In this document: positions 45,148-58,614 of the stretch, piece after piece | Numbering within the stretch: the stretch's first letter is position 1 | Layout of the letters: the number at the start of each line of letters is the position of its first letter | DNA from: Ferruginibacter sp. | GTDB lineage: Bacteria; Bacteroidota; Bacteroidia; Chitinophagales; Chitinophagaceae | Length of the DNA stretch: 64,000 nt | Direction of reading: 5' to 3' | NCBI GenBank assembly: GCA_013141115.1 | Contig: JABFRP010000002.1 | Span: 834,389 to 898,388 of the forward strand | Notes under the pieces: generated by a model | The model's input: only the letters and a program-made list of their open reading frames with translations | What the model was told of the DNA's origin: nothing | The model's database searches: none | Translations under genes and position numbers: made by a program

Positions 45148-45504
45148 TTAATGCCAATCATGATGGCAAAACCTGCATTGTTTTGCTAAAGGAGTTCTTG
45201 CTATTTTATTACATTTAGGACATAGGTTTAATTCCAGCTCCTCTTTATGCGCATTAAAAATCCTTTTTGCAATTCTCAATTTATAAGCCTCATAACCATC
45301 ATTTGTTAGCTCACTTATATTTTTATCACAAAGAATATCTCCCCCTTCTGTTAACACTTTATACATTAAGAGATTAGCTGCTTCGCTTTCAATTGCAGAG
45401 GCCGGCACTTTTACTGAAGCAAAGTTTACTTTTCGCCAGAAATATTTGCCACAATAATTAAAAATATATTCTACCAACTCTGGATAGAGTTTATCACTCG
45501 CCAT
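45148..45504 (-). CDS. hypothetical protein with a C-terminal zinc ribbon
   Basis: 118 aa with CPKC-x13-CRFC. Its start overlaps the stop of the upstream nucleotidyltransferase gene. Confidence 0.55.
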   Translation of the reverse strand: MASDKLYPELVEYIFNYCGKYFWRKVNFASVKVPASAIESEAANLLMYKVLTEGGDILCDKNISELTNDGYEAYKLRIAKRIFNAHKEELELNLCPKCNKIARTPLAKQCRFCHHDWH

Positions 45505-46558
45505 AATGCACCTCCCTTATTTTAATTAATAACTCATTTATACTTTCTACATTGGGTTCATCCTGCAAATTGGATTGCTGATACAACAAAGGCAACTCAT
45601 CCTTCATTGCTTCCGCCTGTTGCACTAAGTCATCATACTCAAATTTGCCTTCTTTTATAGCCAGTAGAAAATCTCTGTCTTTTCTGAAAACATTTATTCT
45701 TCCTTCTACAGCAATTTCTTTTGCCATCAGTAAAAGCCGGAACACATGCATCATATTTTTTGAGTCGTACTTTTTACCATGCTGCATGGTGGTATCATAG
45801 CGTTGCTCATTGCGTTTTGCCACCCAATCCCAATACTCTTTATGTTGTTTGCAATAGATAGAATAGGCATCTTTATTAAAATACAACATCGCTATCGGCT
45901 TTTCTCCTTTGGGAATGCTGCTTAAACTTACTTCGTTGGCATTGTCTTTTTTTGCTACGCCGGAATAATTCAATTCGTTGGAGTAATACAAATTGTAACA
46001 ATCCCTTAGATGCGCTATGGCTGCTAAACCTATTTTGCTTTGCTCCAACCCTTTTTCTTGCAGGTATTTTTTTAAAGGCAGGGCCTCTGCATCTTCATGT
46101 ACAAAACAAAAATCCAGTACCGACTTTCTTTCTTCTTCAACAGGGTTTACTATTTTCTTTTCCAATCCATAGGCTTTTTTTATTTGTGTAAAAGCATAAT
46201 TGGCAAAACTCTGTTCACATTGTTTAGATATAAACATTCCCGGTTGCAGCATATCCATGATGGGATGTTTTTGCAAAATACATTTCTCCGGTACATTCAG
46301 CATCTCCAATATATTAGGGTTGCTTTTCGATAACAATTCCATGAACCTTTTCAATTCGTAATACACAATATCATTGCTATCGTTGTTTACCTGCGCTGTA
46401 TATTCCAAACCATAAAACATATCCTTTGGCAGCACAAACACACCTTTGATATCGGTATCCGATGTTGGGGTATCCAGTCCATAAGACCTGCTGCCGGTTA
46501 TTACTTCAAAAACCAGCAGCCCGTTATTTTTTATCCATTCAATGGTTAGCTTTTGCAT
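45494..46558 (-). CDS. pol-beta superfamily nucleotidyltransferase, RlaP-like (long paralog)
   Basis: 354 aa with the motif ITGSRSYGLDTPTSDTDIKGVF (GS...DxD). Confidence 0.75.
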   Translation of the reverse strand: MQKLTIEWIKNNGLLVFEVITGSRSYGLDTPTSDTDIKGVFVLPKDMFYGLEYTAQVNNDSNDIVYYELKRFMELLSKSNPNILEMLNVPEKCILQKHPIMDMLQPGMFISKQCEQSFANYAFTQIKKAYGLEKKIVNPVEEERKSVLDFCFVHEDAEALPLKKYLQEKGLEQSKIGLAAIAHLRDCYNLYYSNELNYSGVAKKDNANEVSLSSIPKGEKPIAMLYFNKDAYSIYCKQHKEYWDWVAKRNEQRYDTTMQHGKKYDSKNMMHVFRLLLMAKEIAVEGRINVFRKDRDFLLAIKEGKFEYDDLVQQAEAMKDELPLLYQQSNLQDEPNVESINELLIKIREVHYGE

Positions 46559-47297
46559 ACAACATTTTTAAAAAGAATTCATTTAGTAACCCCATGTCGG
46601 CATTATTTACCGCCAGGTTTTCTTTTCCGGCTTCTATGTACTCAAACAAATTCAATATCCATTCATTTAATTTTTCATCCTTTTTGTGCAAATACTTTTC
46701 GCCAACAGTTGCCTTCAATGCTATTAATGTTCTCAATCTTTCCCTGTACTCTTCTTCCACATATTTCATCAGGCCTTCTATATGCATGGGCAAAACAGTA
46801 TTGTCTTTTATTATCCAGTTGCAGGAAAGTAAAGACCGTATCAAATAGAAATAACTTTTCAACTTCAACTCTTCCTTATCTTTCAGCTCTTCCCAAAACT
46901 TTATTGCCAGGGAATAGTGATGAAAGAAAACTGCGATGGGGGAATAATAACTGCCGACCAGCATTTTAAACTCCTCCTTAAAACCCGGCACCAAAAAATA
47001 TTCTATCGGCGAATTAAACCTTTCTATCAACGGTGCATTGGATTTTTTAAGCAGGGTTAGGGATTTTCTAAGATCCCAGCCTGTTATATCCAGGTCGCCA
47101 TCCATTATCTCTACCGTATCTTTTTTTACACTCAACGATAAATACCAATCCCGTTCATGCATGTATATAAAGCGGATATCAAAATCGCTATCCGGCGAAG
47201 GAAAGCCCCAGGCCCTGCTACCCGTCTCGCAGGCATAGAGGATTTTGATGTTTTTACTTTGTTCTATTTCGGTTAGTATGTGTTTTATGTTTTGCAT
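46539..47297 (-). CDS. pol-beta superfamily nucleotidyltransferase, RlaP-like (short paralog)
   Basis: 252 aa with the motif ETGSRAWGFPSPDSDFDIRFIY. It overlaps the next gene by 20 nt. Confidence 0.75.
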   Translation of the reverse strand: MQNIKHILTEIEQSKNIKILYACETGSRAWGFPSPDSDFDIRFIYMHERDWYLSLSVKKDTVEIMDGDLDITGWDLRKSLTLLKKSNAPLIERFNSPIEYFLVPGFKEEFKMLVGSYYSPIAVFFHHYSLAIKFWEELKDKEELKLKSYFYLIRSLLSCNWIIKDNTVLPMHIEGLMKYVEEEYRERLRTLIALKATVGEKYLHKKDEKLNEWILNLFEYIEAGKENLAVNNADMGLLNEFFLKMLYAKANH

Positions 47298-47464: not shown

Positions 47465-47469
47465 GTTTT

Positions 47470-47516
47470 TGATACCGGCTTTTGTTTTTTATGGCATCAT
47501 CGTTGCATCGCAATCC
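47470..47516 (+). repeat. short interspersed repeat, copy b
   Basis: tgataccggcttttgttttttatggcatcatcgttgcatcgcaatcc matches copy a. Confidence 0.7.
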
Positions 47517-48192: not shown

Positions 48193-49042
48193 CTATAAAT
48201 CGCTGAACATATCTTTCAAATATTCAAAGGGTTTCATTTTACTTTTTTTAATTGAATCTAATCCTTTAGTTATTGCTTCGTAAAAATTATTTGTTTGAAA
48301 ATCAATTTTAAGTTGCTCAATCTGCTTCTGCGATTCTTCTTCTTTTTTAGATAACTCTCGTAAAAAAAATATGCCTGCATTTCTAACTTTTTCAAGTCTG
48401 ATAACAACTTCCCGAAATTCTTTCTCTGAAATTTGAATTGGGTTTTTTAATTCATCATTATAATCGCAATAAAAGCCTCTTTGTCTGAATAAATCTACCT
48501 TAGAAAACCAATTTAATTCTCTTCTAAGAATTATTATCTTTCTTAAAAAAGTAAAATTTATACTTGTCCAAAATAAAATTTTTATCATCTCTCATTCCCT
48601 TAATTAGGTTATTCACATGTTCGGGATTATCATTCATTTTTTTAATTATTTTCTTTAATTCATCGCCTGCCAAAGAAATTATAAATATGAAATACGCAAT
48701 TACATACCTTATCTCATGATTCCTGAAGAAAGAGTCAATCCCTTTCGATTTTCTAAAATCAAATCCATTGCCATCTAAAAAAACTATAATTGCTTTTATA
48801 AGTTCTTCAATACTTATGATTGAAGCTGAAATACCCAAGCCAAAATCTCCGTTTTTGGCAAGAACCATTCCTGACTCCCAGCGTCTATCGGAGTTTTCTA
48901 AAATATCATTGTAAACAATTAAGCATTCTTTTCTTGAAATGTTTAAAAATGTTTTACCCTCCATACTTGTTGCTTTAAATTTGTCTAATAAAATTAATTT
49001 AATCACCTGATTCCCCTTTATTAAATATCTATCTATATGCAA
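48193..49042 (-). pseudogene. AbiV/HEPN-like gene apparently split by a frameshift (ORFs 48524..49042 and 48193..48588)
   Basis: The two ORFs overlap by 65 nt. The junction contains the homopolymers TTTTTT and AAAAA. The upstream part has a GLGISASIISIEELIKA helix and the downstream part has SKVDLFRQRGFYCDY, resembling AbiV-type proteins as I recall them. Confidence 0.4.
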
Positions 49043-49088: not shown

Positions 49089-49136
49089 GGTATGCCGTAT
49101 CCCGATACATCGGGAAGTGACACAACGATGATGAGC
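49089..49136 (-). repeat. short interspersed repeat, copy c (inverted relative to copy d)
   Basis: The reverse complement gctcatcatcgttgtgtcacttcccgatgtatcgggatacggcatacc matches 61709..61754. Confidence 0.7.
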
Positions 49137-49245
49137 AGAATTACAAAAGCCCGTCCCAAAAAAGAACCACGATTGAACTGATTAAAAGGATTTGACTGAT
49201 TTAGTCCTTTTCAGGTAAATCAGCCAAATCATAAAAATCATGGTT

Positions 49246-50349
49246 CTATTTCTGCACCACAAATATCTGTTTCAACTGTTCTATCAATGAACCATTACCA
49301 CTTACGCTGATCTCACCAATTTTGTCGGCAATTTTTTCAACGTATTCCATCTCTTTCAATTTCCACAACATGGTATTGTCTTCCATTAATTTGGCAGTGT
49401 TTAACAAACTACGGGTGCTGGCGGTTTCTTCACGCCGCATGATGCTGTTGGCCTGTGCATTTTTTTCTGCCACCAACACTTTGTTCATGATGTCTTTTAC
49501 ATCGCCTGGCAAAATGATATCCCGGATACCGAAACCATTTACTGCAACACCTAAATCTTCGGCAGTATTTTTTATTGCTTCCAAAATAAATGGCACAATG
49601 GTATCTTTTTTCTCCAGCAATTCGTCAAAGCCCAAACCACCAATGTACTCCCGCAATGCCAACTGAAAAGCCACATACAACTGCCGTTCGTAATCTTTGT
49701 TTTGCAACAACGCTTTTTCAATATCGGCCACTTTGTACTGGGCATAACCGTTGATACGCAATGCAGCTTTGTCTTTGGTCAAAATTTCCTGACCGTTGAT
49801 TTCTATTTGCTGCATACGGGTATCGGCTTTACCCACTACAATGGTGATGCTGTTTTTCCACCAGTAGTAAATACCGGCTGGCAATATTTGTGCATACTTT
49901 CCATCAATGAACAAGATGGCTTGCTCATAGTTTTCTACAGTGTAGCTACGCACATAAGGCGCTACCAATTTGTTTTGCAATACGGCACGGCTGATGTTTT
50001 CAGTAATGTCTATTTTGCTGATATCTGCTTTAATAAATTCGTAGTTGTTGACTACGTTTTTCCAAAAAGCATAACGGCCTGCAGTTAATACCTGCTTTAA
50101 CAAACCATCCTGGTACTGCAACACTATTTCATTATCACTTACTTCAATTACCTGCAAGGCGTTGGCTAATGCAGTATCCTGCAATAAAATGTTTAATTCT
50201 GTAGCGGCATAAAATGGTTTGGTTACATCATGTATCATCACGGTTTCATTAAACCACAACCAATAGTTCCCTTCAGTCAACATTTTTTTGTACTCGCCAT
50301 TTTTAAATACCAATGCTATTTGGTAGGCGTTGATTTTTACTTGTTTCAT
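49246..50349 (-). CDS. SPFH/Band-7 (slipin family) protein without a TM anchor
   Basis: 367 aa with a C-terminal SPFH core (GIRDIILPGDVKDIMNKVLVAEKNAQAN). The N-terminus has three repeats of G.Y...L..G.Y..W.N. Confidence 0.85.
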   Translation of the reverse strand: MKQVKINAYQIALVFKNGEYKKMLTEGNYWLWFNETVMIHDVTKPFYAATELNILLQDTALANALQVIEVSDNEIVLQYQDGLLKQVLTAGRYAFWKNVVNNYEFIKADISKIDITENISRAVLQNKLVAPYVRSYTVENYEQAILFIDGKYAQILPAGIYYWWKNSITIVVGKADTRMQQIEINGQEILTKDKAALRINGYAQYKVADIEKALLQNKDYERQLYVAFQLALREYIGGLGFDELLEKKDTIVPFILEAIKNTAEDLGVAVNGFGIRDIILPGDVKDIMNKVLVAEKNAQANSIMRREETASTRSLLNTAKLMEDNTMLWKLKEMEYVEKIADKIGEISVSGNGSLIEQLKQIFVVQK

Positions 50350-50648
50350 TTTGTTTGTTATTATGCCCGCTGATTTCGCAGATGGCGCTGATTAAATTTT
50401 GTTTTAAATAAAGTTGAAATTGGTTGCCATTCTGTAATCACGGAAATGCTTGGTTAACAGATTCTGGCTGACAGTTGTTTTACTATTATTTACCAAAATA
50501 ATTTTAGTAACGTTTAAATAAACCAAGTGTCATTTGTTACCTGCTAATTTTGTCATTTGCAAAGCGTTTACTGAATTTGCTTTGCTGTAAAAGTTGCAAC
50601 AACTTTACAAACAGCGGGCAACGCAATTTCAACTTTAATGGATCACCA

Positions 50649-50720
50649 TTTTTTAAGAAGCGGTGTACTTCTTTACGCTACATTAACGGTGTAGTGCTCT
50701 ACCAATTGAGCTATCCGAGC
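50649..50720 (-). ncRNA. tRNA-like element A (Asn-GTT-like 5' two-thirds, aberrant 3' part)
   Basis: The minus strand reads GCTCGGA-TA-GCTCAATTGGTAGAGC-A-CTACA-CCGTTAA-TGTAG, then AGAAG-TACACCG-CTTCT. No 3' strand complementary to GCTCGGA is present. Confidence 0.5.
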
Positions 50721-50786
50721 TGGATTTCGGAAAGGGATTCGAACCCTAACAATTGTTGTTGCTCTAACCAACTGAGCTATCCTGTT
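50721..50786 (-). ncRNA. tRNA-like element B (D arm, T arm and encoded T-CCA tail, mini anticodon arm)
   Basis: The minus strand reads AACAGGA-TA-GCTCAGTTGGTTAGAGC-(AACAA-CAA-TTGTT)-AGGG-TTCGAAT-CCCT-TCCGAAA-T-CCA. The 5' and 3' acceptor strands pair at only 3 of 7 positions. Confidence 0.5.
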
Positions 50787-50787
50787 T

Positions 50788-50812
50788 TACCAGGAGAAGG
50801 ACTTGAACCTTC
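50788..50812 (-). ncRNA. tRNA-like element C (isolated T arm plus 3' acceptor strand)
   Basis: GAAGG-TTCAAGT-CCTTC-TCCTGGT-A on the minus strand. I could not fold a D or anticodon arm upstream of it. Confidence 0.35.
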
Positions 50813-51005
50813 GACACACAACGTGATGGCTGGCGTACCTTACAGCAACAATAGCATACAGATAGTTACTACGTCTGCACTGTTGTGTTTTAAAACACTA
50901 ACCTGGTTTGCTTTCTGAAGGTGTATACCAGTCTTGCTGTTAAGCAAGCTTTTGAATTGAATTTTTACTTCAACAATATTTTAAAGAACTTCTTGTTTTA
51001 CTTTG

Positions 51006-51061
51006 ATAACACAAATCTCCAACCTATGTGTGCAATTTATTTGCACAGTAAAAATTATTTT
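51006..51061. promoter_or_regulatory. 56-bp duplicated promoter/operator-like element, copy 1
   Basis: 50 of 56 nt are identical to 52012..52067. It contains the palindrome tgtgcaa-N5-ttgcaca (51029-51047). Confidence 0.55.
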
Positions 51062-51072
51062 TTATTTTTTTG

Positions 51073-51272: not shown

Positions 51273-52013
51273 TTATTTCCCCGGGCAATTCAATGTTTCA
51301 TAAACCTCATTTATTTCTGTTACAAATGCCCCGGTATAACTTTGTATTACCAATAAATCCTCTATGCTTGATTTAAATTTTAAAATGGTCGTTTTATCAT
51401 TTAGCCACTCATTTAAAAATTCTATACCACCATCAGCAAAAGGATTATCAATACTCAAATTCCCTTTCCTTGTCACCTTAACTCCAGACGCTATCGTTTG
51501 AACAAAATGCATTAAAGCACTGAATTCTTTTACTTCTTCCCACATTTCAGTTGTCCAGCTAATATCAAAGCCTGTTTTTGAAAGCATAATAATTACAGCT
51601 TCAAGGTCTTCAAAATCAGCAGCAGGATATTTTGTCAAGCATTTTTTAAAGAATGATTTCATATACTGCTCCAGAAAATCCGTTTCGTCTGTTGACCATT
51701 CTCCCGATCTTAAATATGCCATTCTGCTTAAAGCTATTTCTACAGAATGTGCTGGAAAATTGAATTCACTGATAAGTTCCAATAAACGTGGCAGAAAATA
51801 TTTGTACTCCACCGCTTCAATTTCTTCCGACATAGCTGAAGTATTATAGACACTCAGCAAGTCTAAAGGAATTTTTTCAACCGGTATACTCAATAGCAAT
51901 TCCTGTTCTTCTTCACTCACACAACATGGGCATACATCAAGTTTACCATTAAGTTTGTAGCGGGCAAACAGGTTGTAACCTTTTTGTATGATCTCCTTCA
52001 TTTCCTTTTCCAT
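51273..52013 (-). CDS. hypothetical protein (246 aa from M33)
   Basis: ORF 51273..52109. The ATG at 52013 is preferred because upstream of it lies the shared divergent promoter element. No family recognised. Confidence 0.55.
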   Translation of the reverse strand: MEKEMKEIIQKGYNLFARYKLNGKLDVCPCCVSEEEQELLLSIPVEKIPLDLLSVYNTSAMSEEIEAVEYKYFLPRLLELISEFNFPAHSVEIALSRMAYLRSGEWSTDETDFLEQYMKSFFKKCLTKYPAADFEDLEAVIIMLSKTGFDISWTTEMWEEVKEFSALMHFVQTIASGVKVTRKGNLSIDNPFADGGIEFLNEWLNDKTTILKFKSSIEDLLVIQSYTGAFVTEINEVYETLNCPGK

Positions 52014-52067
52014 AACACAAATCCCAATCCCTTGTGTGCAATCTATTTGCACAGTAAAAATTATTTT
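52012..52067. promoter_or_regulatory. 56-bp duplicated promoter/operator-like element, copy 2 (divergent region of the WYL gene)
   Basis: Palindrome tgtgcaa-N5-ttgcaca at 52035-52053. On the plus strand, TTTG inside the palindrome followed after 21 nt by TATTTTTA resembles a Bacteroidota -33/-7 promoter ahead of the ATG at 52093. Confidence 0.55.
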
Positions 52068-52092
52068 CACTATTTTTAAAAAAAAATTCAAA

Positions 52093-53106
52093 ATGCCTGT
52101 AAACCGCAATGCCCTAATCCGCTACCGCACTATCGACAAATGCCTGCAAAACCGCCGCCGCAAATGGACCATCGAAGACCTGATAGATGCCTGCAATGAT
52201 GCTTTGTACGAGTACGAAGGCGTGCATACCAATATCAGCATGCGTACCATCCGGCTGGATCTGAATGCCATGCGTAGTGATTCTCTCGGCTACAATGCCC
52301 CCATCATAGTAAACAACAAAAAATTTTATACTTATGAAGATGCGGAGTATTCCATTGCTAACAGTCCGCTTACTACACAAGATCTGGGCATATTGCAGGA
52401 AGTATCGCACCTACTGCGCCAGTTTAAAGGTTTCAGCCACTTTAACGAAGTGAGCGAAATGGTAAATAAACTGGAAGACAAAATTTACAGCGAACAACAC
52501 CAGCAGGCATCCGTAATTGATTTTGAAAAAAACGACTTGCTCACCGGCATTGAATGGCTGGATATTTTATACAAGGCCATTGTAAATAAAACCACCTTGC
52601 TCATCACTTACCAATCTTTTAAAGCACGCCAGGCGGCCGATATTATTTTTTATCCCTACCTGCTTAAAGAATACCGCAACCGCTGGTTTATCCTGGGTAT
52701 GAAAAAGCAGGGCAAAGAAATCATCACTTTTGCATTAGACCGTATTCAAAATATTACAGCACAGGACAAAGAACTTTTTGTGCAGCACAAAAAATTTGAG
52801 CCGCATACTTACTTCGATAATATTATTGGCGTTACCCGTAACTATGCCGAAGAGCCGACCACCATTTTATTTTGGGCCAGTGCACATCATGCACCTTATA
52901 TAAAAACTAAACCCATACATGCATCACAAAAAATAGTAGAAGAAGTAAAAGGCGGTACGCATTTCAGCATTGCCGTTATCCCCAATTTTGAAATGGAAAG
53001 AGAACTGATCGGCTTTGGTGAAGGCATTAAAATTTTATCGCCTAATAATATTGTGCGGCAGATAAAACGGAAAGTGCGTTTGATAAGCGAGCTGTACCAG
53101 GAATAA
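52093..53106 (+). CDS. WYL-domain transcriptional regulator (HTH-WYL-WCX type)
   Basis: The N-terminus MPVNRNALIRYRTIDKCLQN is typical of this family. A central WYL-like segment is YPYLLKEYRNRWFILG. Confidence 0.8.
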   Translation: MPVNRNALIRYRTIDKCLQNRRRKWTIEDLIDACNDALYEYEGVHTNISMRTIRLDLNAMRSDSLGYNAPIIVNNKKFYTYEDAEYSIANSPLTTQDLGILQEVSHLLRQFKGFSHFNEVSEMVNKLEDKIYSEQHQQASVIDFEKNDLLTGIEWLDILYKAIVNKTTLLITYQSFKARQAADIIFYPYLLKEYRNRWFILGMKKQGKEIITFALDRIQNITAQDKELFVQHKKFEPHTYFDNIIGVTRNYAEEPTTILFWASAHHAPYIKTKPIHASQKIVEEVKGGTHFSIAVIPNFEMERELIGFGEGIKILSPNNIVRQIKRKVRLISELYQE

Positions 53107-53148: not shown

Positions 53149-54231
53149 TTAATTCATCGTCACTTCCTGCCGTCTAAACCCAAACACTTCCGTTCTTTCA
53201 ATTACATTATCTTTTTCATCGGGGTTGGCAATTTCTGCTATGGTCATAGGCTTTGTAATGCTATTGCTAAAACCTAAGTGATCCGATAAGCGTTGCGATT
53301 TTGTTGTACTCAACTTTCCAAATTCATATTTTGCAATTAACCTGCCTTTACGCATCAGTGCACTATCTACCAGTGTAAGCGAATTATTAAAAGTGCAGAT
53401 CAGTTGTACATTTAAAAAATCGGCCAGCAACCCATCGGAAATGTTCAATAAATTAGATACCGATGCATTGCCATTTAATTTTCTATCCATAATTATATTT
53501 TCTGCATCTTCAATGATCAGCACACTGTTGGGATTGCTCACCAGCAACTCAATAAAATCGGGGCTGGTAATATCCGCTGCTACATTGGGAGACACAAACA
53601 ACACCCGCTTTTTAATTTTACCAATAAGGTAACGCAGGTAAGTGGTTTTGCCTGTGCCGGGTAAACCGTGCAGTAATACAATGCCTTTGTCTTTATCTTT
53701 TGTAAGCCGCTTGCAAATGGTATCACTCACTGCTTTAAAATCATCTTCATAAAAAAGATCCAGGCTAAGCTTAGTACGTTTTACTTCCAGTTGCTTTAAC
53801 TCCAGCCCGTTTCGGCCACGGCTGATGAGGTTTATCTCTAACGGCTTTCTGCGCTGCTTCTCTTTAAACTGTTTCATCAGGTTAGTACAGTCGTTTATAA
53901 AATCTTCCTGCATCCCGCTGTGATATATTTCGCAGTAATTGGTATCAAACTCTATTACACATCCGTTTTTCATGATCATAAATGTTTCATCAAAAACGTA
54001 GCGTTTTTTCTTACTGTCGTAATAGCGGTAACCATGCTGCGACTCTATCAAATGCCCAAACTTGTCTTTGATAGCAGCAAATGCTTTTTCCCCATCAATA
54101 TTGTTGATATAGTTAGCACTGGGTATTTGCCCAAAGCAATACAGGTATAATGATTTGCCACTTAAAAATCCATTATCAAAAATGCTGTTGGCATTGATCA
54201 TTTTTTGATTGGTAGTATTTTCCATTTTCAT
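53149..54231 (-). CDS. AAA+ ATPase (classic AAA clade) with an N-terminal domain of unknown function
   Basis: 360 aa with Walker A GLPGTGKT and Walker B LIIEDAEN. Confidence 0.8.
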   Translation of the reverse strand: MKMENTTNQKMINANSIFDNGFLSGKSLYLYCFGQIPSANYINNIDGEKAFAAIKDKFGHLIESQHGYRYYDSKKKRYVFDETFMIMKNGCVIEFDTNYCEIYHSGMQEDFINDCTNLMKQFKEKQRRKPLEINLISRGRNGLELKQLEVKRTKLSLDLFYEDDFKAVSDTICKRLTKDKDKGIVLLHGLPGTGKTTYLRYLIGKIKKRVLFVSPNVAADITSPDFIELLVSNPNSVLIIEDAENIIMDRKLNGNASVSNLLNISDGLLADFLNVQLICTFNNSLTLVDSALMRKGRLIAKYEFGKLSTTKSQRLSDHLGFSNSITKPMTIAEIANPDEKDNVIERTEVFGFRRQEVTMN

Positions 54232-54358: not shown

Positions 54359-54844
54359 CTAATGCACAATTTTATTAGCGCAACTGCTGCTTGCAAAAGC
54401 ATCCGGCTTGGCTTTAAAAGCAAAGCCCATCCCCATGATATATCCCATGGCTTCTTTCAAAGCATCATTACTTTTAAAATTAGGATTGGTATTAATATCC
54501 ACATGCACTTCCATATCCACACTGTAGCGGCTAAAAATATTGCACAGCGTATACGCTACTTCAACACTCTTCGCTACTTCCACTAACATCCGTTGTTTGA
54601 TACTCATTTTTTGCAAAGTAGTTTCGTTGCAGATATACATAAACCCTCCTTTACCCTTACGTATAAAAACAATTACGGTAGCAAATTCAGTTTCCTTTCC
54701 TTTTACCTGGCTATCGGTACCAATACACACTTTCAGTTCATGGCCCATTGCTCTTTCTCTTTCAATAGTTACCTTTACTTCATCCTCAATAGGAATGCGT
54801 ATTTTTTCACCGTTTAATTTTCTCCATTGCTGTTGCTGTTCCAT
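54359..54844 (-). CDS. YkuK/DUF458 family RNase H-like protein
   Basis: 161 aa with the motif CIGTDSQVKGKETEFATVIVFIRKGKGGF, matching the IGTDSQ...TAIV..R.GKG pattern I recall for YkuK. Confidence 0.7.
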   Translation of the reverse strand: MEQQQQWRKLNGEKIRIPIEDEVKVTIERERAMGHELKVCIGTDSQVKGKETEFATVIVFIRKGKGGFMYICNETTLQKMSIKQRMLVEVAKSVEVAYTLCNIFSRYSVDMEVHVDINTNPNFKSNDALKEAMGYIMGMGFAFKAKPDAFASSSCANKIVH

Positions 54845-54973: not shown

Positions 54974-55720
54974 TCATCTTTTCCCAGCCTTTATTGAATC
55001 AAGTATTTGAATCAATGATTTGTTTTTAAATTCATTTGCTTCATTATACTTTTCAAACTCTTTATAATACCTGTGCTTGTAATGCCCATGCACCAACCGG
55101 GATTGCTTTTTCCGTAAATCTTTTCGCTCCAGGTAATTGTCCAATAATTTCATCTTCGATTCCAGCTCGGCATCTTTTATCCTTACCTTATCAATCATAT
55201 TGGGCTTTATTTTTAACACATATCTCCAAACTTCAATAAACTCATACCGCTTAATGGGTTGTTTTTTCCAATCCAATTCCCACACTTCTCTAAAAAATTG
55301 TTTTTCAGATTCGTTGAAATCCATTTTTAAAGATTGGTATTCGTAAGGCCTTAAAAGATGTTGTGGTTTTACAACATAAATTTTTCGCCCCCGTTTCCGC
55401 TTCTTTCTTTTAAAGTCTTTTTTCCAGTGGTACTCGTAAGTATTTATTTTTTTTAAAATCGTTTCAAAAAAAATCCCATGCCTGCTCCTTGCCACATCCT
55501 CCCTTACTACAAAAAACCTAACCCATCCTTTTTGTATCGGCGGATGCAATGGCTCCCACCCCAAATTTCTTTGTTGCAGATACAATGCATTTTCTTCTTT
55601 ATGCAATTGTATCAGTTGCTTATCAAAATCTTTATACCGCAGTCTTTTCTTTTGCCTTGCAGTACGTAAACGGTAACAGAGCATATCTTCTCCGTACTGT
55701 TGAATAAGTTTTGTGTCCAT
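54974..55720 (-). CDS. highly basic hypothetical protein
   Basis: 248 aa, K/R/W/Y-rich (KKDFKRKKRKRGRK). It is the first CDS downstream of the tRNA array on the same strand. Confidence 0.55.
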   Translation of the reverse strand: MDTKLIQQYGEDMLCYRLRTARQKKRLRYKDFDKQLIQLHKEENALYLQQRNLGWEPLHPPIQKGWVRFFVVREDVARSRHGIFFETILKKINTYEYHWKKDFKRKKRKRGRKIYVVKPQHLLRPYEYQSLKMDFNESEKQFFREVWELDWKKQPIKRYEFIEVWRYVLKIKPNMIDKVRIKDAELESKMKLLDNYLERKDLRKKQSRLVHGHYKHRYYKEFEKYNEANEFKNKSLIQILDSIKAGKR

Positions 55721-55843
55721 AATGTTTTATTTTGTTTCGATCGAAAACTCCTGTGCCATTGCAGCAGGTGTGTTATTTGTTTCATTATGAACCGTGTTAC
55801 TTTTTTCATTACTTCTTTTTTAAGTTGTATAAATTTATTTTTG

Positions 55844-55914
55844 CATCAATACAAGGATTCGAACCCTGACAGATAGTGTTGGAAGCTATCATGCTACCTT
55901 TACATCATACTGAT
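55844..55914 (-). tRNA. tRNA-Trp(CCA)
   Basis: Manual fold: acceptor ATCAGTA/TATTGAT, T arm CAGGG-TTCGAAT-CCTTG, anticodon arm ATAGC-TTCCAAC-ACTAT with one C-A mismatch. Confidence 0.7.
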
Positions 55915-55925
55915 AATTTTTATTG

Positions 55926-55996
55926 CGGACGAAGCAAGACTCGAACTTGCACTACCAGCTCTTCAAACAGGCACTCTACCGTTGAGTTATTCGTCC
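55926..55996 (-). tRNA. tRNA-Phe(GAA)
   Basis: Acceptor GGACGAA/TTCGTCC, T arm GCAAG-TTCGAGT-CTTGC, anticodon loop TTGAAGA. The anticodon stem has one U-U mismatch. Confidence 0.75.
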
Positions 55997-55999
55997 AGT

Positions 56000-56067
56000 T
56001 TGTTTGCAACAGGCTTGTTGATTGATCTATATTTCCTCATCGTCGAATTCACCTGTTATCAAACAAT
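56000..56067. repeat. hairpin spacer element 1 inside the tRNA array
   Basis: The arms tgtttgcaacagg (56001-56013) and cctgttatcaaaca (56052-56066) pair. It shares its terminal sequence with the element at 56569. Confidence 0.5.
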
Positions 56068-56077
56068 TTCTTTATTG

Positions 56078-56151
56078 AGTCCTGCAGAGGACTCGAACCT
56101 CCTTCTTTCGATTTGCAGTCGAATGCATACGACCATGTCTGCCAGCAGGAC
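56078..56151 (-). tRNA. tRNA-Cys(GCA)
   Basis: Acceptor GTCCTGC/GCAGGAC, T arm GGAGG-TTCGAGT-CCTCT, anticodon arm TTCGA-CTGCAAA-TCGAA. Confidence 0.8.
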
Positions 56152-56156
56152 ATTTG

Positions 56157-56240
56157 CGGAGAGTAAAGGATTCGAACCTTTGCACCGAATAAACGATGAT
56201 GGCTTAGCGGGCCACTACAATACCACTCTGTCAACTCTCC
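56157..56240 (-). tRNA. tRNA-Ser(GCT), type II, with C at position 33
   Basis: Acceptor GGAGAGT/ACTCTCC, T arm AAAGG-TTCGAAT-CCTTT, a long variable arm, and anticodon arm GTGGC-CCGCTAA-GCCAT. Confidence 0.7.
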
Positions 56241-56252
56241 TAAATATTTTTG

Positions 56253-56340
56253 CGGAGAGAAAGAGATTCGAACTCTTGATCCGCCAAATGGCGGACAGTA
56301 TGTTTTCAAGACAGCATCCATGACCATCCGGACTCTCTCC
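56253..56340 (-). tRNA. tRNA-Ser(TGA), type II, with a weak anticodon stem
   Basis: Acceptor GGAGAGA/TCTCTCC, T arm AAGAG-TTCGAAT-CTCTT, variable arm CCGCC-ATTT-GGCGG, and loop CTTGAAA closed by only 3 Watson-Crick pairs. Confidence 0.65.
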
Positions 56341-56345
56341 AATTG

Positions 56346-56485
56346 TGTGAGTGGATGGATTACTCACTTCACATTTATTTAATTTTTGTGTTCATGTATT
56401 CCGCTTCGCTCCATTTCGAACCATCTAAGTCTTTTGAACAGCAGATTTACAGTCTGCTACGAATCGCCGTCTTCGTCGCACTCAC
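56346..56485 (-). tRNA. tRNA-Tyr(GTA)-like gene with a 55-nt insertion in the T-loop (possibly a pseudogene)
   Basis: Acceptor GTGAGTG/CACTCAC, D arm ACGA-N10-TCGT, anticodon arm GCAGA-CTGTAAA-TCTGC. The T stem GATGG (56421-56425) pairs with CCATC (56354-56358) and encloses TTCGAA plus 55 nt (56360-56414) plus T. Confidence 0.5.
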
Positions 56486-56492
56486 ATTTTTG

Positions 56493-56564
56493 AGGATGAA
56501 AAAAGATTCGAACTTTTAACCCTCCCGCTAACAACGGGACGCTCTGCCATTGAGCTATTCATCG
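56493..56564 (-). tRNA. tRNA-Asn(GTT)
   Basis: Acceptor CGATGAA/TTCATCC (C1 x C72 mismatch), T arm AAAAG-TTCGAAT-CTTTT, anticodon arm TCCCG-TTGTTAG-CGGGA. Confidence 0.75.
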
Positions 56565-56568
56565 ATTA

Positions 56569-56671
56569 TTTGTTTGACCAGGGATTTTTAAAGATTGATG
56601 GGATTAAAAAAATTATAGCATCCATAATCTTTTTAATCATTTTCATCCACCCAAATCCCAGTTCAAACAAA
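56569..56671. repeat. 103-nt hairpin spacer element 2 inside the tRNA array
   Basis: The arms tttgtttgaccagggattt and aaatcccagttcaaacaaa pair at 17 of 19 positions. There is further inner pairing (gattaaaaa/tttttaatc). Confidence 0.55.
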
Positions 56672-56674
56672 CTG

Positions 56675-56748
56675 TAGTTCCGGTGAGACTCGAACTCACA
56701 ACCACCGAATTAAAAGTTCGGTGCATCTAACCATTGAGCTACGAAACT
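56675..56748 (-). tRNA. tRNA-Lys(TTT)
   Basis: Acceptor AGTTTCG/CGGAACT, T arm GTGAG-TTCGAGT-CTCAC, anticodon arm CCGAA-CTTTTAA-TTCGG. The D stem is weakened by an extra T. Confidence 0.75.
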
Positions 56749-56755
56749 ATTTTTG

Positions 56756-56828
56756 TGATGACTAAAGGACTCGAACCTTTAACCACTACCGTATCAGGAT
56801 AGCACTCTGCCAATTGAGTTAAGTCATC
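56756..56828 (-). tRNA. tRNA-Ile(GAT)
   Basis: Acceptor GATGACT/AGTCATC, T arm AAAGG-TTCGAGT-CCTTT, anticodon arm CTATC-CTGATAC-GGTAG. Confidence 0.8.
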
Positions 56829-56832
56829 TTTG

Positions 56833-56904
56833 TTGCGACCGCAAGATTCGAACTTGCATCTTCTGGCTTATGAGACCAGTATGTTACCATTACACCAAGT
56901 CACA
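56833..56904 (-). tRNA. tRNA-Met(CAT) (elongator Met or lysidine-dependent Ile2, undecided)
   Basis: Acceptor TGTGACT/GGTCGCA (2 G-U pairs), T arm GCAAG-TTCGAAT-CTTGC, anticodon arm CTGGT-CTCATAA-GCCAG. It lacks the initiator GGG/CCC stem. Confidence 0.75.
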
Positions 56905-56918
56905 ATTTTATTTTTTTG

Positions 56919-56991
56919 TTGACTTAATTGGATTCGAACCAATAACCTTTTGCGTATAAGGCAACTGCTCTCACCGTTAAGCTATAAGTCA
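56919..56991 (-). tRNA. tRNA-Ile(TAT)
   Basis: Acceptor TGACTTA/TAAGTCA, T arm ATTGG-TTCGAAT-CCAAT, anticodon loop CTTATAC. Confidence 0.7.
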
Positions 56992-56997
56992 ATTTAG

Positions 56998-57070
56998 TTG
57001 GTCTAACAAGATTCGAACTTGTATCCCCACGTTCGTAGCGTAGTATTCTCATCCGTTGAACTATAGACCA
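56998..57070 (-). tRNA. tRNA-Arg(ACG)
   Basis: Acceptor TGGTCTA/TAGACCA, T arm ACAAG-TTCGAAT-CTTGT, anticodon arm CTACG-CTACGAA-CGTGG. Confidence 0.8.
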
Positions 57071-57074
57071 ATTT

Positions 57075-57168
57075 GTGCGGCTTCCGGATTTGAACCGGAT
57101 ACGACCCTCTTATGTTTACCTCTTAGAAAAAGAGGAAGACGATCATGTTACCATTACACTCAACCGCA
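57075..57168 (-). tRNA. atypical 94-nt tRNA-like gene (anticodon assignment ambiguous; the best hairpin gives TTC)
   Basis: Acceptor TGCGGTT/AGCCGCA, D arm GTGT-AATGGTA-ACAT, T arm TCCGG-TTCAAAT-CCGGA. The 44-nt central region holds the hairpin CCTCT-TTTTCTA-AGAGG plus a second AAGAGG copy. Confidence 0.45.
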
Positions 57169-57170
57169 TT

Positions 57171-57243
57171 GGTTGACTTCGGGTCTCGAACCCTGTTCCC
57201 CACATTCACAGTGTGGTACTTTACCAGTTAAGCTAAAGCCAAC
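57171..57243 (-). tRNA. tRNA-His(GTG)
   Basis: Acceptor GTTGGCT/AGTCAAC, anticodon arm CCACA-CTGTGAA-TGTGG. The T arm CAGGG-TTCGAGA-CCCGA is imperfect. Confidence 0.7.
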
Positions 57244-57253
57244 ATTTAATAAG

Positions 57254-57325
57254 TGCAGCATGAGTGATTCGAACACTCTCCTCCGATTTGGAAGACCGGC
57301 ACGCCGCCATCAACGCATATACTGC
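57254..57325 (-). tRNA. tRNA-Gly(TCC)
   Basis: Acceptor GCAGTAT/ATGCTGC, T arm GAGTG-TTCGAAT-CACTC, anticodon arm CCGGT-CTTCCAA-ATCGG. Confidence 0.8.
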
Positions 57326-57335
57326 AATTTTTTTG

Positions 57336-57406
57336 TTATCGAGGATAGATTCGAACTATCAACTTCAGAGTCAAATTCTGAAATGTTGCCATTACACCAC
57401 TCGATA
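57336..57406 (-). tRNA. tRNA-Gln(TTG)
   Basis: Acceptor TATCGAG/CTCGATA, T arm GATAG-TTCGAAT-CTATC, anticodon arm TCAGA-ATTTGAC-TCTGA. Confidence 0.8.
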
Positions 57407-57416
57407 ATTTTTTTTG

Positions 57417-57488
57417 CGGTTCGTATGAGAATCGAACTCATAGCTTCTGATAGACAATCAGAAATGTTAGCCGTTACACTAACGAACC
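57417..57488 (-). tRNA. tRNA-Asp(GTC) with U at position 37
   Basis: Acceptor GGTTCGT/ACGAACC, T arm ATGAG-TTCGATT-CTCAT, anticodon arm TCTGA-TTGTCTA-TCAGA. Confidence 0.75.
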
Positions 57489-57543
57489 GTTATAGTGGAG
57501 TACTGACTGAAGCAATACTGCACACTATGTTTCAAAGGGCTTG

Positions 57544-57616
57544 CAGTCTGTACCGGATTCGAACCGGTATTGTCAAGTAGAAAGCTTGATATCCTGAACC
57601 ATTAGATCAACAGACC
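57544..57616 (-). tRNA. tRNA-Glu(TTC) with U at position 37
   Basis: Acceptor GGTCTGT/ACAGACT, T arm ACCGG-TTCGAAT-CCGGT, anticodon arm TCAAG-CTTTCTA-CTTGA. Confidence 0.75.
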
Positions 57617-57622
57617 ATTTTG

Positions 57623-57695
57623 TATAGTAGGCAAGATTCGAACTTGCAGCCTCTCCGGTCCAGGCGGAGTATCCAACCAATTGGAATGCTACTAT
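57623..57695 (-). tRNA. tRNA-Pro(TGG) with C at position 33
   Basis: Acceptor ATAGTAG/CTACTAT, T arm GCAAG-TTCGAAT-CTTGC, anticodon arm CTCCG-CCTGGAC-CGGAG. Confidence 0.7.
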
Positions 57696-57720
57696 GTTTA
57701 AAAAATAATCAAAGAACTTT

Positions 57721-57757
57721 TTAAAAAGCTTCCCCGTTGCATCTCACGGGGAAAGCT
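57721..57757 (-). terminator. rho-independent terminator just upstream of the tRNA array
   Basis: agcttccccg-N10-cggggaaagct, with a T-run on the minus strand. Confidence 0.6.
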
Positions 57758-57779
57758 TTATTCCTCCTTCTGCATCTGA

Positions 57780-57860
57780 TTATTTTATACGCCTTTTTAT
57801 CTTATTGAAAATGGCTTCTGCAAATGCCTGCATCAACCATACTACTATTAAAAATGTCAT
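57780..57860 (-). CDS. possible 26-aa hydrophobic/basic micro-protein
   Basis: Own translation: MTFLIVVWLMQAFAEAIFNKIKRRIK. It is followed by the terminator at 57721-57757. No homology evidence. Confidence 0.25.
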   Translation of the reverse strand: MTFLIVVWLMQAFAEAIFNKIKRRIK

Positions 57861-57880
57861 ACGCTGTTTTTTTTAAATAC

Positions 57881-57976
57881 TTAATACTTACGGTTTCTTT
57901 TTTCTACTTTACCTGCATACGCCACCAACAAGTGTATTATAATCAGCAAAAATTTTAGCATGTGCAATGTTTCCAT
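57881..57976 (-). CDS. possible 31-aa hydrophobic/basic micro-protein
   Basis: Own translation: METLHMLKFLLIIIHLLVAYAGKVEKRNRKY. It is preceded by AAAGGAGGGTAAA, a strong SD-like site that is rare elsewhere in this window. Confidence 0.3.
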   Translation of the reverse strand: METLHMLKFLLIIIHLLVAYAGKVEKRNRKY

Positions 57977-58068: not shown

Positions 58069-58218
58069 TTACTCATTTACCTTACACGGTCGTGTTATAT
58101 TTTTATCAATCGATGCATTACTAAACAGCACAGCATGGCCTATCGGCATAATAGTACTATACCAGTTGATCGACATACTTCGGTTTGCTATTTGTTGTTT
58201 ACAATTTTGTTGATGCAT
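58069..58218 (-). CDS. possible 49-aa small protein
   Basis: Own translation: MHQQNCKQQIANRSMSINWYSTIMPIGHAVLFSNASIDKNITRPCKVNE. It is followed by the terminator at 58014-58051. Confidence 0.2.
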   Translation of the reverse strand: MHQQNCKQQIANRSMSINWYSTIMPIGHAVLFSNASIDKNITRPCKVNE

Positions 58219-58296
58219 TTTTATTTTTTAGTTTACAATTTTATTTATGTCATTAACCTTCGCTACTTCCATTTATTACAGTTCAACACAGTGGCA

Positions 58297-58326
58297 ACAA
58301 AAAACCCCGCTGATTCAGGCGGGGCT
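58297..58326 (-). terminator. rho-independent terminator
   Basis: ccccgc-N8-gcgggg, with a T-run on the minus strand. Confidence 0.6.
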
Positions 58327-58353
58327 TAGGTTATAGCGAATTAGTTTTGATAC

Positions 58354-58446
58354 TTATTCATCAGCATAACATGCCCCGCAACTGGTGTAATCCCCTTTTG
58401 GACTAAACCAATTCATCGCTTCAATATGTAGTTGTATGCGTAACAT
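58354..58446 (-). CDS. possible 30-aa Cys-containing peptide
   Basis: Own translation: MLRIQLHIEAMNWFSPKGDYTSCGACYADE. It is followed by the terminator at 58297-58326 and lies downstream of the two-component system. Confidence 0.2.
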   Translation of the reverse strand: MLRIQLHIEAMNWFSPKGDYTSCGACYADE

Positions 58447-58614
58447 GTTTTGTTGTTGTTAAATTTTATTTGCACTGCAAAGATGAATTTATTTTTGATA
58501 CTGCCAAATATTTTTCAAAAAAAAAGTAAAAATATTTTTACAGCCGTCATCATTACAAATCATTTTCTCCAATGAAAACAAGTAAAAAAATAACAGGAAA
58601 TTATTTTTAAAAAA

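Follow-up and report, generated by a model that had tools for sequence, protein, structure and literature searches.

Organization of the tRNA array

We analyzed a stretch of 64,000 nt from a Ferruginibacter genome (the window, to which all coordinates refer unless a comparison sequence with an L number is named). A dense array of tRNA genes occupies positions 55843-57695 of its minus strand. The array comprises 19 elements in 1.85 kb, all on one strand and without a repeated unit, and it heads an RNA-repair supercluster of about 16 kb (42.2-57.8 kb), in which the ligase RtcB is encoded 12 kb downstream on the same strand. In the order of transcription, the elements are:

57622-57695, minus strand: tRNA-Pro(TGG), the first array gene (Rfam 48.6 bits and relaxed ARAGORN; 100% identical in L002)
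57543-57616, minus strand: tRNA-Glu(TTC) (ARAGORN, Rfam 56.7 bits)
57416-57488, minus strand: tRNA-Asp(GTC) (ARAGORN, Rfam 57.5 bits)
57335-57406, minus strand: tRNA-Gln(TTG) (ARAGORN, Rfam 59.7 bits)
57253-57325, minus strand: tRNA-Gly(TCC) (ARAGORN, Rfam 43.5 bits)
57171-57243, minus strand: tRNA-His(GTG), with G-1 and C73 encoded (ARAGORN, Rfam 44.8 bits)
57075-57168, minus strand: X RNA, tRNA-like and non-decoding (covariation, covariance model)
56997-57070, minus strand: tRNA-Arg(ACG) (ARAGORN, Rfam 60.1 bits)
56918-56991, minus strand: tRNA-Ile(TAT) (ARAGORN, Rfam 69.7 bits)
56832-56904, minus strand: tRNA-Met(CAT), elongator or Ile2 type (ARAGORN, Rfam 60.4 bits)
56755-56828, minus strand: tRNA-Ile(GAT) (ARAGORN, Rfam 65.6 bits)
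56674-56748, minus strand: tRNA-Lys(TTT) (ARAGORN, Rfam 61.6 bits)
56492-56564, minus strand: tRNA-Asn(GTT) (ARAGORN, Rfam 58.8 bits)
56346-56485, minus strand: tRNA-Tyr(GTA), class II, with a split T loop (exons 56415-56485 and 56346-56359)
56252-56340, minus strand: tRNA-Ser(TGA), class II, with a weakened anticodon stem, may be impaired (relaxed ARAGORN)
56156-56240, minus strand: tRNA-Ser(GCT) (ARAGORN, Rfam 53.7 bits)
56077-56151, minus strand: tRNA-Cys(GCA) (ARAGORN, Rfam 52.4 bits)
55925-55996, minus strand: tRNA-Phe(GAA) (ARAGORN, Rfam 62.2 bits)
55843-55914, minus strand: tRNA-Trp(CCA), the last array gene (ARAGORN, Rfam 49.4 bits)

With default settings, ARAGORN called 15 tRNA genes within 55843-57616 (minus strand), and the identical 15 genes were found with the Rfam tRNA model RF00005 at 43.5-69.7 bits (gathering score 29). 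Two more genes were recovered under relaxed conditions: Pro-TGG, which reached 48.6 bits once the Rfam filters were loosened and was also called by ARAGORN at a relaxed threshold, and Ser-TGA, which was called by relaxed ARAGORN only and matched the tRNA-Sec model at 36.8 bits, under the cutoff of that model. The anticodon stem of Ser-TGA contains two mismatches, and its orthologues in L010, L018, L007 and L014 are clean. In total, 17 tRNA genes were thus confirmed by ARAGORN and Rfam, and the interrupted tRNA-Tyr and X, called by neither tool, complete the set of 19. The CAT gene is assigned to the elongator or Ile2 type because its positions 1 and 72 are paired.

A preliminary description of the window, made by reading the sequence, had reported 19 tRNA or tRNA-like genes in 1.85 kb, and this number, all anticodons and the gene order proved to be correct. 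The same is true for the amino acids covered, which are 16; Ala, Val, Leu and Thr are missing, and the atypical 94-nt gene, X, is not a tRNA-Leu. Spacers of mostly 4-12 nt had been described; 15 of the 18 spacers are indeed short (2-13 nt) and A-rich, but the remaining three have lengths of 54, 109 and 80 nt. Software scoring, proposed as a check for pseudogenes, placed 15 members above the Rfam threshold under standard filters, with scores equal to those of the host tRNA genes.

The window contains two host tRNA genes, Arg-CCG (13275-13347) and Gln-CTG (20681-20752), both called by ARAGORN and both with anticodons that differ from those of the array. Their Rfam scores of 61.4 and 57.0 bits lie inside the range of the array. 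The preliminary description had contrasted an AT-rich array with GC-rich host genes. This difference turned out to be small, as the guanine-plus-cytosine (GC) content of the array members is 38-55% (mean 46%) compared with 47% and 52% for the two host genes, whereas the divergence between Gln-TTG of the array and Gln-CTG of the host stood (65% identity). Near-identical T arms are common to several array members. The CCA end is not encoded in any tRNA gene of the window, host or array; in all of them, N73 is followed by C and a run of A (N73-C-AAAA). One 3'-processing signal therefore appears to serve the host genes and the array alike.

Arrays at related loci

The gene directly downstream of the array encodes a basic protein of 248 amino acids (p248). 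For comparison, 80 loci encoding p248 relatives were used, with one genome per species. Upstream of p248 relatives of Chitinophagaceae, 36 arrays were found on the same strand, with 2-18 called genes each; all counts over these 36 arrays are relaxed ARAGORN calls, and some errors are likely. In 22 of the 36 cases, the distance from the end of the array to the start of p248 is 99-204 nt, and in 31 it is within 2.5 kb. On the other side, a pair of histidine kinase and response regulator genes and two neighboring genes were kept in Ferruginibacter, in Niastella and in another genus-level metagenome-assembled genome. Gene order, leader, spacers, trailer and X are conserved with 70-98% nucleotide identity across genera. 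At p248 loci outside the Chitinophagaceae, no array was present.

The content of the arrays is not uniform. The most frequent member is Lys-TTT (27/36 arrays), followed by Phe-GAA (25/36), His-GTG (23/36), Arg-ACG (22/36), Gln-TTG and Asn-GTT (21/36 each), Glu-TTC (18/36) and Asp-GTC (16/36). At the other end of the scale, Ala-TGC occurs in 3/36 arrays, Val-TAC in 2/36, and a tRNA-Thr of any kind in 0/36. The most retained members are tRNAs of two-codon boxes, with a single isoacceptor per amino acid, and such single-isoacceptor tRNAs are enriched in the arrays (Lys, Phe, His, Gln, Asn, Glu and Asp). Some relatives have arrays without essential members such as Phe, Trp or Met. As the content varies so strongly between relatives, the arrays are not the sole source of essential tRNAs. 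The array of the window could read about 69% of the local codons, the commonest included, and it is therefore no supplement for rare codons. We also noticed that a tRNA-Ile with a UAU anticodon often stands beside a CAU gene in the arrays (56918-56991 in the window; 14/36 related arrays). A UAU anticodon is an unusual bacterial way of reading AUA.

For tRNA-Lys(UUU), 22 array orthologues were aligned. The cloverleaf is kept, compensatory changes occur at 12 of 17 pairs, and the anticodon loop is nearly fixed (CUUUUAA or CUUUUAC). Together with the encoded G-1 and C73 of tRNA-His, this covariation argues for selection on tRNA function.

The RNA-repair supercluster

The preliminary description had missed the main context of the array, which is the RNA-repair supercluster that extends downstream of it. 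Its components are, from the array onwards:

54974-55720, minus strand: p248, basic 248-aa protein, fold not assigned, partner of array and RtcB
54359-54844, minus strand: RNase H-like protein (PF04308, YkuK/DUF458 family; E 7e-38)
53149-54231, minus strand: AAA ATPase (domain search)
52093-53106, plus strand: WYL/WCX-domain transcriptional regulator (likely start 52093; longest open reading frame (ORF) from 51988)
50600-51060, minus strand: non-coding RNA (ncRNA) region of about 450 nt with tRNA-like modules, upstream of the Band-7 gene, conserved in at least 25 loci
49246-50349, minus strand: Band-7/SPFH protein
48524-49042, minus strand: AbiV-type HEPN protein
46539-47297, minus strand: RlaP nucleotidyltransferase
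45494-46558, minus strand: second RlaP nucleotidyltransferase
44504-45031, minus strand: 3'-5' exoribonuclease
42248-43696, minus strand: RtcB ligase (PF01139; E 5e-84)

The p248 protein is 100% identical to a protein of a Ferruginibacter sp. and has 382 homologues, mostly in Chitinophagaceae. No family match was obtained in Pfam, NCBIfam or PADLOC, and an AlphaFold2 model (predicted local distance difference test score 79) had no match in PDB or BFVD at E <= 0.001. Across Bacteroidota, p248 is a near-constant neighbor of RtcB (loci L051-L081, from Chryseobacterium and others); in Chryseobacterium, RtcB follows directly after p248 and an array is absent. At the locus of Ferruginibacter sp. SUN106 (L001), a Ro60/TROVE protein and an RNA ligase are encoded in addition. 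The scan of 20 proteins between 40.8 and 62.9 kb revealed neither an RtcA cyclase nor a sigma-54 regulator RtcR (CARF-AAA+-HTH), and no TROVE gene was present among the window genes scanned.

The region at 50600-51060 probably encodes a Band-7-associated tRNA-like ncRNA. It contains a half-tRNA (50655-50714) and a YrlA-like match (50756-50820; 37 bits, E 2.9e-6). As the gathering threshold is 69 bits, this RNA resembles the family of YrlA and bacterial Y RNAs (RF02553) rather than belonging to it. Burroughs and Aravind reportedly described systems of Band-7/SPFH proteins and tRNA-like RNAs in 2016, and we take the region to represent the Band-7-associated RNA of that work.

Several further observations were made in the supercluster. 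The AbiV-type HEPN protein, of an abortive-infection RNase family, is encoded between Band-7 and RlaP and is thus a potential tRNA- or RNA-cutting toxin beside repair genes. A direct repeat of 66 nt (85% identical) with the palindrome TGTGCAAATAnATTGCACA is found at 51006-51071, before the Band-7 ncRNA region, and at 52012-52077, in the divergent promoter region of the WYL gene and g51273; a weaker copy lies at 58465-58496. This repeat, or its palindrome, is a candidate operator for the WYL protein. The motif AGATGCA was considered as a cluster-wide operator and discarded, as it was not significantly enriched. Another repeat, of 49 nt and 92% identity, is present in two intergenic gaps (45058-45106 and 47467-47515), and part of it recurs in inverted orientation at 49123-49162. 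Read on the plus strand, the 49-nt repeat gives TGGCAT-N5-TTGC, a sigma-54-like sequence in antisense orientation relative to the repair genes. Elsewhere in the window, two full-length cobalamin riboswitches are encoded on the minus strand (17877-18073 and 20394-20581; 100.7 and 114.7 bits), one of them just downstream of the host tRNA-Gln(CTG).

X, a covarying tRNA-like RNA

Three parts of X are those of an ordinary tRNA, namely the acceptor stem, the D arm (with GG) and the T arm. The 7-nt anticodon loop is replaced by a module of 31 nt, which adds 24 nucleotides: within an anticodon stem extended to 8 bp lie an inner hairpin (CCUYUY...RRRAGG) and, after it, the 7-nt strand UAAACAU. The extra helix stacks directly on the anticodon stem. 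In an alignment of 11 orthologues, 94% of the cells were paired and compensatory changes occurred in 15 of 29 pairs; the covariation score was reached by none of 500 shuffles, and slid controls collapsed. A covariance model of X yielded 82-106 bits in the window and at 14 related loci, and ordinary tRNAs reached 53 bits or less. X is located between His and Arg or between His and Leu (the window, L002, L008, L010 and L024 were compared). X is therefore a real, conserved, covarying and non-decoding tRNA-like RNA.

Conventional identities for X were considered and rejected. It is not a tRNA-Leu, since a separate Leu-TAA gene lies beside it in L002 and in Ferruginibacter sp. SUN106. An intron-containing tRNA-Gly (5' side CUUCC/CUCCC) was discarded because the CCU of that register belongs to the invariant inner helix, and U33 is lost in L024 and L012. 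Likewise, a tRNA with a bulge-helix-bulge intron of the archaeal type does not fit, as no excision was found that leaves a loop with U33 in all orthologues. For the copy in L006, ARAGORN reported a 93-nt Glu-TTC, which conflicts with the covarying structure. A search of IMG/VR with the X pattern gave two matches in viral contigs, which were not confirmed by the covariance model of X.

Leader, spacers and trailer

Conserved non-coding segments flank the tRNA genes:

57720-57790, minus strand: leader with the motif UUAGAUGCAGAAGGAGGAAUAAAGC, a terminator-like hairpin (stem 57729-57754), the invariant loop GAGAUGCA and a U-run, conserved in 14 related loci
57489-57542, minus strand: spacer sp, 54 nt, a nested hairpin (6-bp outer stem, 7-bp inner stem, 7-nt loop CUUCAGU), conserved in L002, L003 and L004
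56565-56673, minus strand: spacer hpA, 109 nt, a long imperfect hairpin with the termini TTGTTTGA...TCAAACAA, conserved in L002, L004 and L008
55997-56076, minus strand: spacer hpB, 80 nt, with the core GAATTCGA.GATGAGGAAA...ATCAATCAA and the termini TTGTTTG...CAAACAA, sequence conserved in 7 loci
55721-55842, minus strand: spacer between array and p248, 122 nt, 70-97% identical in about 28 loci

The leader hairpin was flagged as terminator-like; its stem covaries and its loop GAGAUGCA is fixed. The leader had no match in Rfam, and it is a candidate attenuator or regulatory site for the array. A leader peptide, MQKEE, that would sense Gln, Lys and Glu codons was rejected because indels break the frame in L010 and L013. 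No sigma-54 promoter was seen in the leader by eye, and a sigma-70 scan remained at background level.

The spacers differ in their structural support. For sp, 98% of the cells were paired across 4 sequences and the covariation was not significant. For hpB, pairing was present and the covariation was again not significant, so that its structural support is weak. Both were therefore rejected as structured RNAs. An ORF of 26 codons in hpA was dismissed as a gene, as it is not conserved in L004 or L008. In the 122-nt spacer that separates the array from p248, no terminator-like site was detected.

Upstream, the gap of about 900 nt between the response regulator gene and the array contains several short ORFs of 26-49 codons on the minus strand (57777-57976 and 58150-58445), two of which encode hydrophobic peptides. 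Two strong terminator-like hairpins also lie in this gap, near 58030 (by eye) and at 58302-58327.

A 55-nt element interrupts tRNA-Tyr

The T loop of the tRNA-Tyr gene is split between nucleotides 59 and 60 by a 55-nt element (56360-56414, minus strand; ATGGAGCGAAGCGGAA..CAyGAACAC...GTGAGTAA), which is located directly 3' of the T-loop sequence TTCGAA. The orthologue of Ferruginibacter sp. SUN106 (L001, 5270-5345) is uninterrupted. The insert probably disables the tRNA-Tyr of the window unless it is removed.

Copies of the element were found at three genome loci and on 21 metagenome contigs; those named outside the window are L019 8533-8588, L006 9326-9381 and L082-L102. The general form is [A/T]TGGAGCGAAGCGGAAnnCAyGAACAC, followed by 16-24 nt that are A/T-rich and by GTGAG(C)TAA, with a GCGAAGC mini-hairpin near the left end. 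Five array tRNAs are interrupted in the T loop (Tyr, Pro, Ser-TGA, Arg-TCT and Ile-TAT). The element also splits ORFs of group II intron reverse transcriptases, at three sites, and one further host looks like an IS3-type transposase ORF, as read from the restored translation. On the metagenome contigs L086 and L093, one group II reverse-transcriptase gene appears to hold two copies, an intact one at the site WKK|PERK and a degenerate one at the site GWLR|NRLRY, which is also used in L098.

Insertion follows strict rules. The trinucleotide GAA directly precedes the element in 16 of 16 aligned copies, without a target duplication, and every copy with a readable host gene lies inside the gene and in the sense orientation. 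Exact excision in silico restores the tRNA or the reading frame (the restored ORF of L084 has 251 amino acids). Between two Ile-TAT orthologues that carry the element, 2 of 74 exon positions are different, compared with 6 of the 23 positions aligned in the central part of the insert.

The element had no match in Rfam or among viral contigs or plasmids, and no literature on its motif was found. Predicted folds of the interrupted tRNA-Tyr did not contain a bulge-helix-bulge motif, though removal of the insert gives a normal T loop. With no match in Rfam, no such motif and no literature, a known ribozyme or intron was rejected. Judged from its sequence, the element may be either an IS200/IS605-like mini-transposon or a small intron that is removed at the RNA level. 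It has in common with IS200/IS605 elements the insertion immediately after a short invariant motif (GAA), the lack of a target duplication, a mini-hairpin (GCGAAGC) near the left end and a right end (TAA) similar to the target. In contrast to them, its 55 nt are far below the length of known derivatives, and no linked transposase was seen, although none was searched for. Its constant location inside genes in the sense orientation, wherever the context is readable, would be unusual for a miniature inverted-repeat transposable element. Non-canonical tRNA introns of archaea include T-loop positions, and the element resembles them by its insertion at position 59/60 of the T loop, by its sense orientation and by its vicinity to a locus of an RtcB-type ligase. 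It differs from archaeal tRNA introns in that no bulge-helix-bulge could be drawn around its junctions. No bacterial tRNA-splicing endonuclease is known.

A probable spare tRNA set coupled to RNA repair

Taken together, the results make it fairly probable that the array is a chromosomal accessory tRNA operon, a spare and stress-linked set that heads the RtcB RNA-repair locus of Chitinophagaceae. By analogy, it is best read as a variant of the L-arrays of cyanobacteria in which the spare set is coupled in cis to tRNA repair. The array does not appear to be the housekeeping set, because its content varies between relatives; this supernumerary status is judged from the arrays of relatives and from the 64 kb of its own genome that the window covers. 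The preliminary description had likewise proposed a back-up set, and this view gained support from the differing content among relatives, the degenerate or interrupted members and the four missing amino acids. Its suggestion that the array is co-transcribed with the downstream genes also remains plausible: the junction of about 100-200 nt is kept in 22/36 loci and no terminator was seen. The array is presumably transcribed together with the genes for p248, the RNase H-like protein and the AAA ATPase.

We propose the following mechanism. Transcription would enter through the conserved leader, and in unstressed cells the terminator-like hairpin would limit read-through. Damage to tRNAs or stalled translation would induce the locus, with the WYL protein as the candidate sensor or regulator; possible triggers are the anticodon nucleases of competitors, phage-triggered RNases (e.g. 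the HEPN protein of the cluster itself) and antibiotics that target the ribosome. RNase P and RNase Z would process the polycistronic RNA, with CCA added as for the CCA-less tRNA genes of the host. The fresh tRNAs could then restore decoding, chiefly for amino acids with a single isoacceptor (Lys, Phe, His, Gln, Asn, Glu, Asp, Ile, Met, Trp, Cys and Tyr); the array could read roughly 69% of the local codons, and the larger part of these belongs to such amino acids. Meanwhile, RtcB, RlaP, the exonuclease and the module of p248, RNase H-like and AAA proteins would heal and reseal the cleaved tRNAs.

Several observations weigh against this proposal. The leader hairpin and the WYL protein are only presumed regulators, and a WYL gene is absent from many related loci within the 20 kb retrieved. 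No promoter was identified, and the minus strand between 55 and 58.6 kb contains no Bacteroidota -7 box (TAnnTTTG). Some members look impaired, namely Ser-TGA with its mismatched stem and the interrupted Tyr, and the shrinkage of arrays to 2-4 genes in some genomes shows that they are dispensable. Lastly, a role outside translation would explain X and the hairpin spacers, which do not decode, equally well or better.

Alternative interpretations

The last point leads to an explanation that we consider unlikely, namely that the main role of the array RNAs lies outside translation. They could serve as decoys or sponges for tRNA-cleaving toxins, or as substrates, scaffolds or damage sensors for RtcB and p248, comparable to Y RNAs with Ro60. 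Such roles would account for conserved RNAs that are unable to decode (X and the spacers sp, hpA and hpB) and for the second tRNA-like ncRNA, with Band-7, in the same cluster. There are also precedents, as a sponge role has been proposed for the operonic tRNAs of Anabaena (PMC8421152), and a study on Salmonella reportedly describes regulation of the rtc operon by damaged tRNAs (PMC7790460). However, seventeen members have complete canonical cloverleaves and anticodon loops, and the conserved identity elements of tRNA-His, G-1 and C73, indicate more constraint than a decoy seems to need. Moreover, a role outside translation is compatible with a spare tRNA set and does not exclude it.

A wider proposal would be that the locus represents a new bacterial system of tRNA maintenance with RNAs as integral components, consisting of the vertically inherited spare-tRNA operon and, co-transcribed with it, a new RtcB partner module of p248, RNase H-like and AAA proteins, with X as cofactor, sensor or decoy and with the 55-nt element as an intron ligated by RtcB. 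We regard this combination as doubtful. If true, the 55-nt element would be a new class of small bacterial introns, removed by endonuclease cleavage and RtcB-type ligation, and bacteria would possess protein-catalyzed splicing of tRNAs and mRNAs.

The preliminary description had further claimed that the array is foreign and was horizontally acquired. This part did not hold, since the array occupies the same site upstream of p248/RtcB throughout the Chitinophagaceae, its flanks are conserved, its GC content matches the neighborhood, and its 3' trailer is that of the host genes. A recently acquired back-up set, borne by a phage or an island, is thus improbable. L-arrays elsewhere have been described as spread by horizontal gene transfer (PMC8421152), and several features of the array could be taken in the same sense: the identity of only 65% between Gln-TTG and the host Gln-CTG, the shared near-identical T arms, which suggest an origin separate from the housekeeping genes, and the nearby defense-type gene (AbiV). 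In addition, a 198-kb jumbo viral contig (L104; IMGVR_UViG_3300031603_000001) encodes, within positions 1-12468, a p248 homologue with 30% identity, which sits in a cluster of 14 tRNA genes beside genes for a Thg1-like protein and an HNH endonuclease. No match to this phage homologue was obtained in INPHARED, and the context of a second viral p248-like locus (L103) was uninformative.

Against recent acquisition stand the syntenic position across the family with both flanks conserved, the GC content, which equals that of the surroundings, and the 3' trailer pattern, which is the same as in host tRNA genes. Adjacent to the array, we found no integrase, transposase or phage genes, as the flanks consist of a two-component system and RNA-repair genes. 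Among the 50,697 phage records of INPHARED no similar array was present, and only single generic tRNA matches were obtained. Together with the failure of the two viral-contig matches of the X pattern in the covariance model, this led us to reject a phage origin. Because synteny upstream of the array is kept across genera and hallmarks of phages or mobile elements are missing, recent horizontal acquisition is unsupported, and the comparison points to an old, vertically inherited array and p248-RtcB locus. An ancient horizontal origin of the array is possible.

It is very unlikely that the array is a decaying relic, a graveyard of pseudogenes left by an old acquisition. The interrupted Tyr and the mismatched stem of Ser-TGA would agree with decay, as would the arrays of 2-4 genes in several genomes, the lack of arrays at p248 loci outside the family and the failure to find a recognizable promoter. 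In a relic, however, one would not expect compensatory changes that maintain the stems of tRNA-Lys and X, Rfam scores equal to those of host tRNAs, or a gene order, leader, trailer and spacers with 70-98% conservation between genera. Finally, that the array is the housekeeping set for its amino acids, as might be thought from the only two other tRNA genes in the window with their different anticodons, is extremely improbable, given relatives in which the same locus lacks Phe, Trp or Met or has 2-4 genes or none, and given a tRNA-Tyr that is interrupted here and intact in the sister species.

Implications

Accessory tRNA arrays are widespread and poorly understood, and the only functional study that we located in the literature is that of Anabaena. 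At the locus described here, the link between array and rtcB is physical and evolutionarily stable, as the whole family keeps an array at the head of the RtcB/RlaP/Band-7 locus. This supports the view that bacteria pair the repair of cut tRNAs with the supply of new ones, and the bias towards single isoacceptors suggests which tRNAs are weak points under RNase attack. The system is tractable, because culturable strains of Ferruginibacter, Niastella and Terrimonas are available, and the leader hairpin, the WYL protein, p248 and X are testable parts. The p248 proteins constitute an uncharacterized family of RtcB partners across Bacteroidota. By-products of the analysis are X, a strongly covarying new tRNA-like RNA, and a 55-nt, GAA-targeting, sense-only insertion in tRNA T loops and in genes of other mobile elements, which would represent a new type of intron or else a new mini-transposon.

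Comparison with known systems

The array shares with the tRNA clusters of phages the compact multi-tRNA cassette, and its content overlaps with the classic targets of anticodon nucleases. These targets are Lys-UUU for PrrC, RloC and PARIS, Tyr, His, Asn and Asp for colicin E5, Arg for colicin D, and Glu, Lys and Gln for gamma-toxin. Unlike the phage clusters, the array described here belongs to a cellular chromosome and is inherited vertically; it is not accompanied by phage genes, and it has no sequence similarity to the phage arrays of INPHARED. Its anticodon loops look canonical (e.g. CUUUUAA in tRNA-Lys), without mutations of the phage type. Two studies reportedly describe phage tRNAs as countering nucleases that target tRNAs (PMC10264068, eLife 2023; PMC11555353, Nat Commun 2024).

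With Rtc operons that contain ncRNAs, such as rsr-yrlBA-rtcBA of Salmonella and the Band-7/SPFH systems, the locus has in common the combination of RtcB, RlaP, Band-7 and a tRNA-like ncRNA, and the sister locus L001 also encodes a Ro60/TROVE protein. Heavily damaged tRNA requires RlaP to become functional again (PMC12776372). In contrast to the Rtc operons, the locus includes a complete decoding tRNA array, the candidate regulator is a WYL protein, RtcA and RtcR were not seen among the genes scanned, and genes for p248, the RNase H-like protein and the AAA ATPase are added. The array is therefore neither a phage tRNA cluster nor part of a canonical RtcBA-RtcR operon.

The closest likeness is to the L-arrays. 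That of Anabaena is silent until translation is impaired and is co-regulated with rtcB, other cyanobacteria have rtcB near their L-arrays, and long arrays were also recorded in Bacteroidetes in the same survey (PMC8421152). The array agrees with the structural definition of L-arrays, with many co-oriented tRNA genes, short spacers and no periodic pattern. It is likewise an accessory set with some odd or impaired members, it has RNA-processing genes including rtcB in its neighborhood, and the role proposed for it is survival of translational stress. The two differ in that L-arrays are patchy and show horizontal spread, whereas the array described here is syntenic family-wide (31/36 loci). It also has no adjacent HNH homing endonuclease gene, and its candidate regulator is the WYL protein. 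Three features are not described for L-arrays: the fusion in cis to the head of the RtcB-linked genes, directly upstream of the phylum-wide RtcB partner gene p248; the dedicated non-decoding RNA X; and the conserved leader and trailer.

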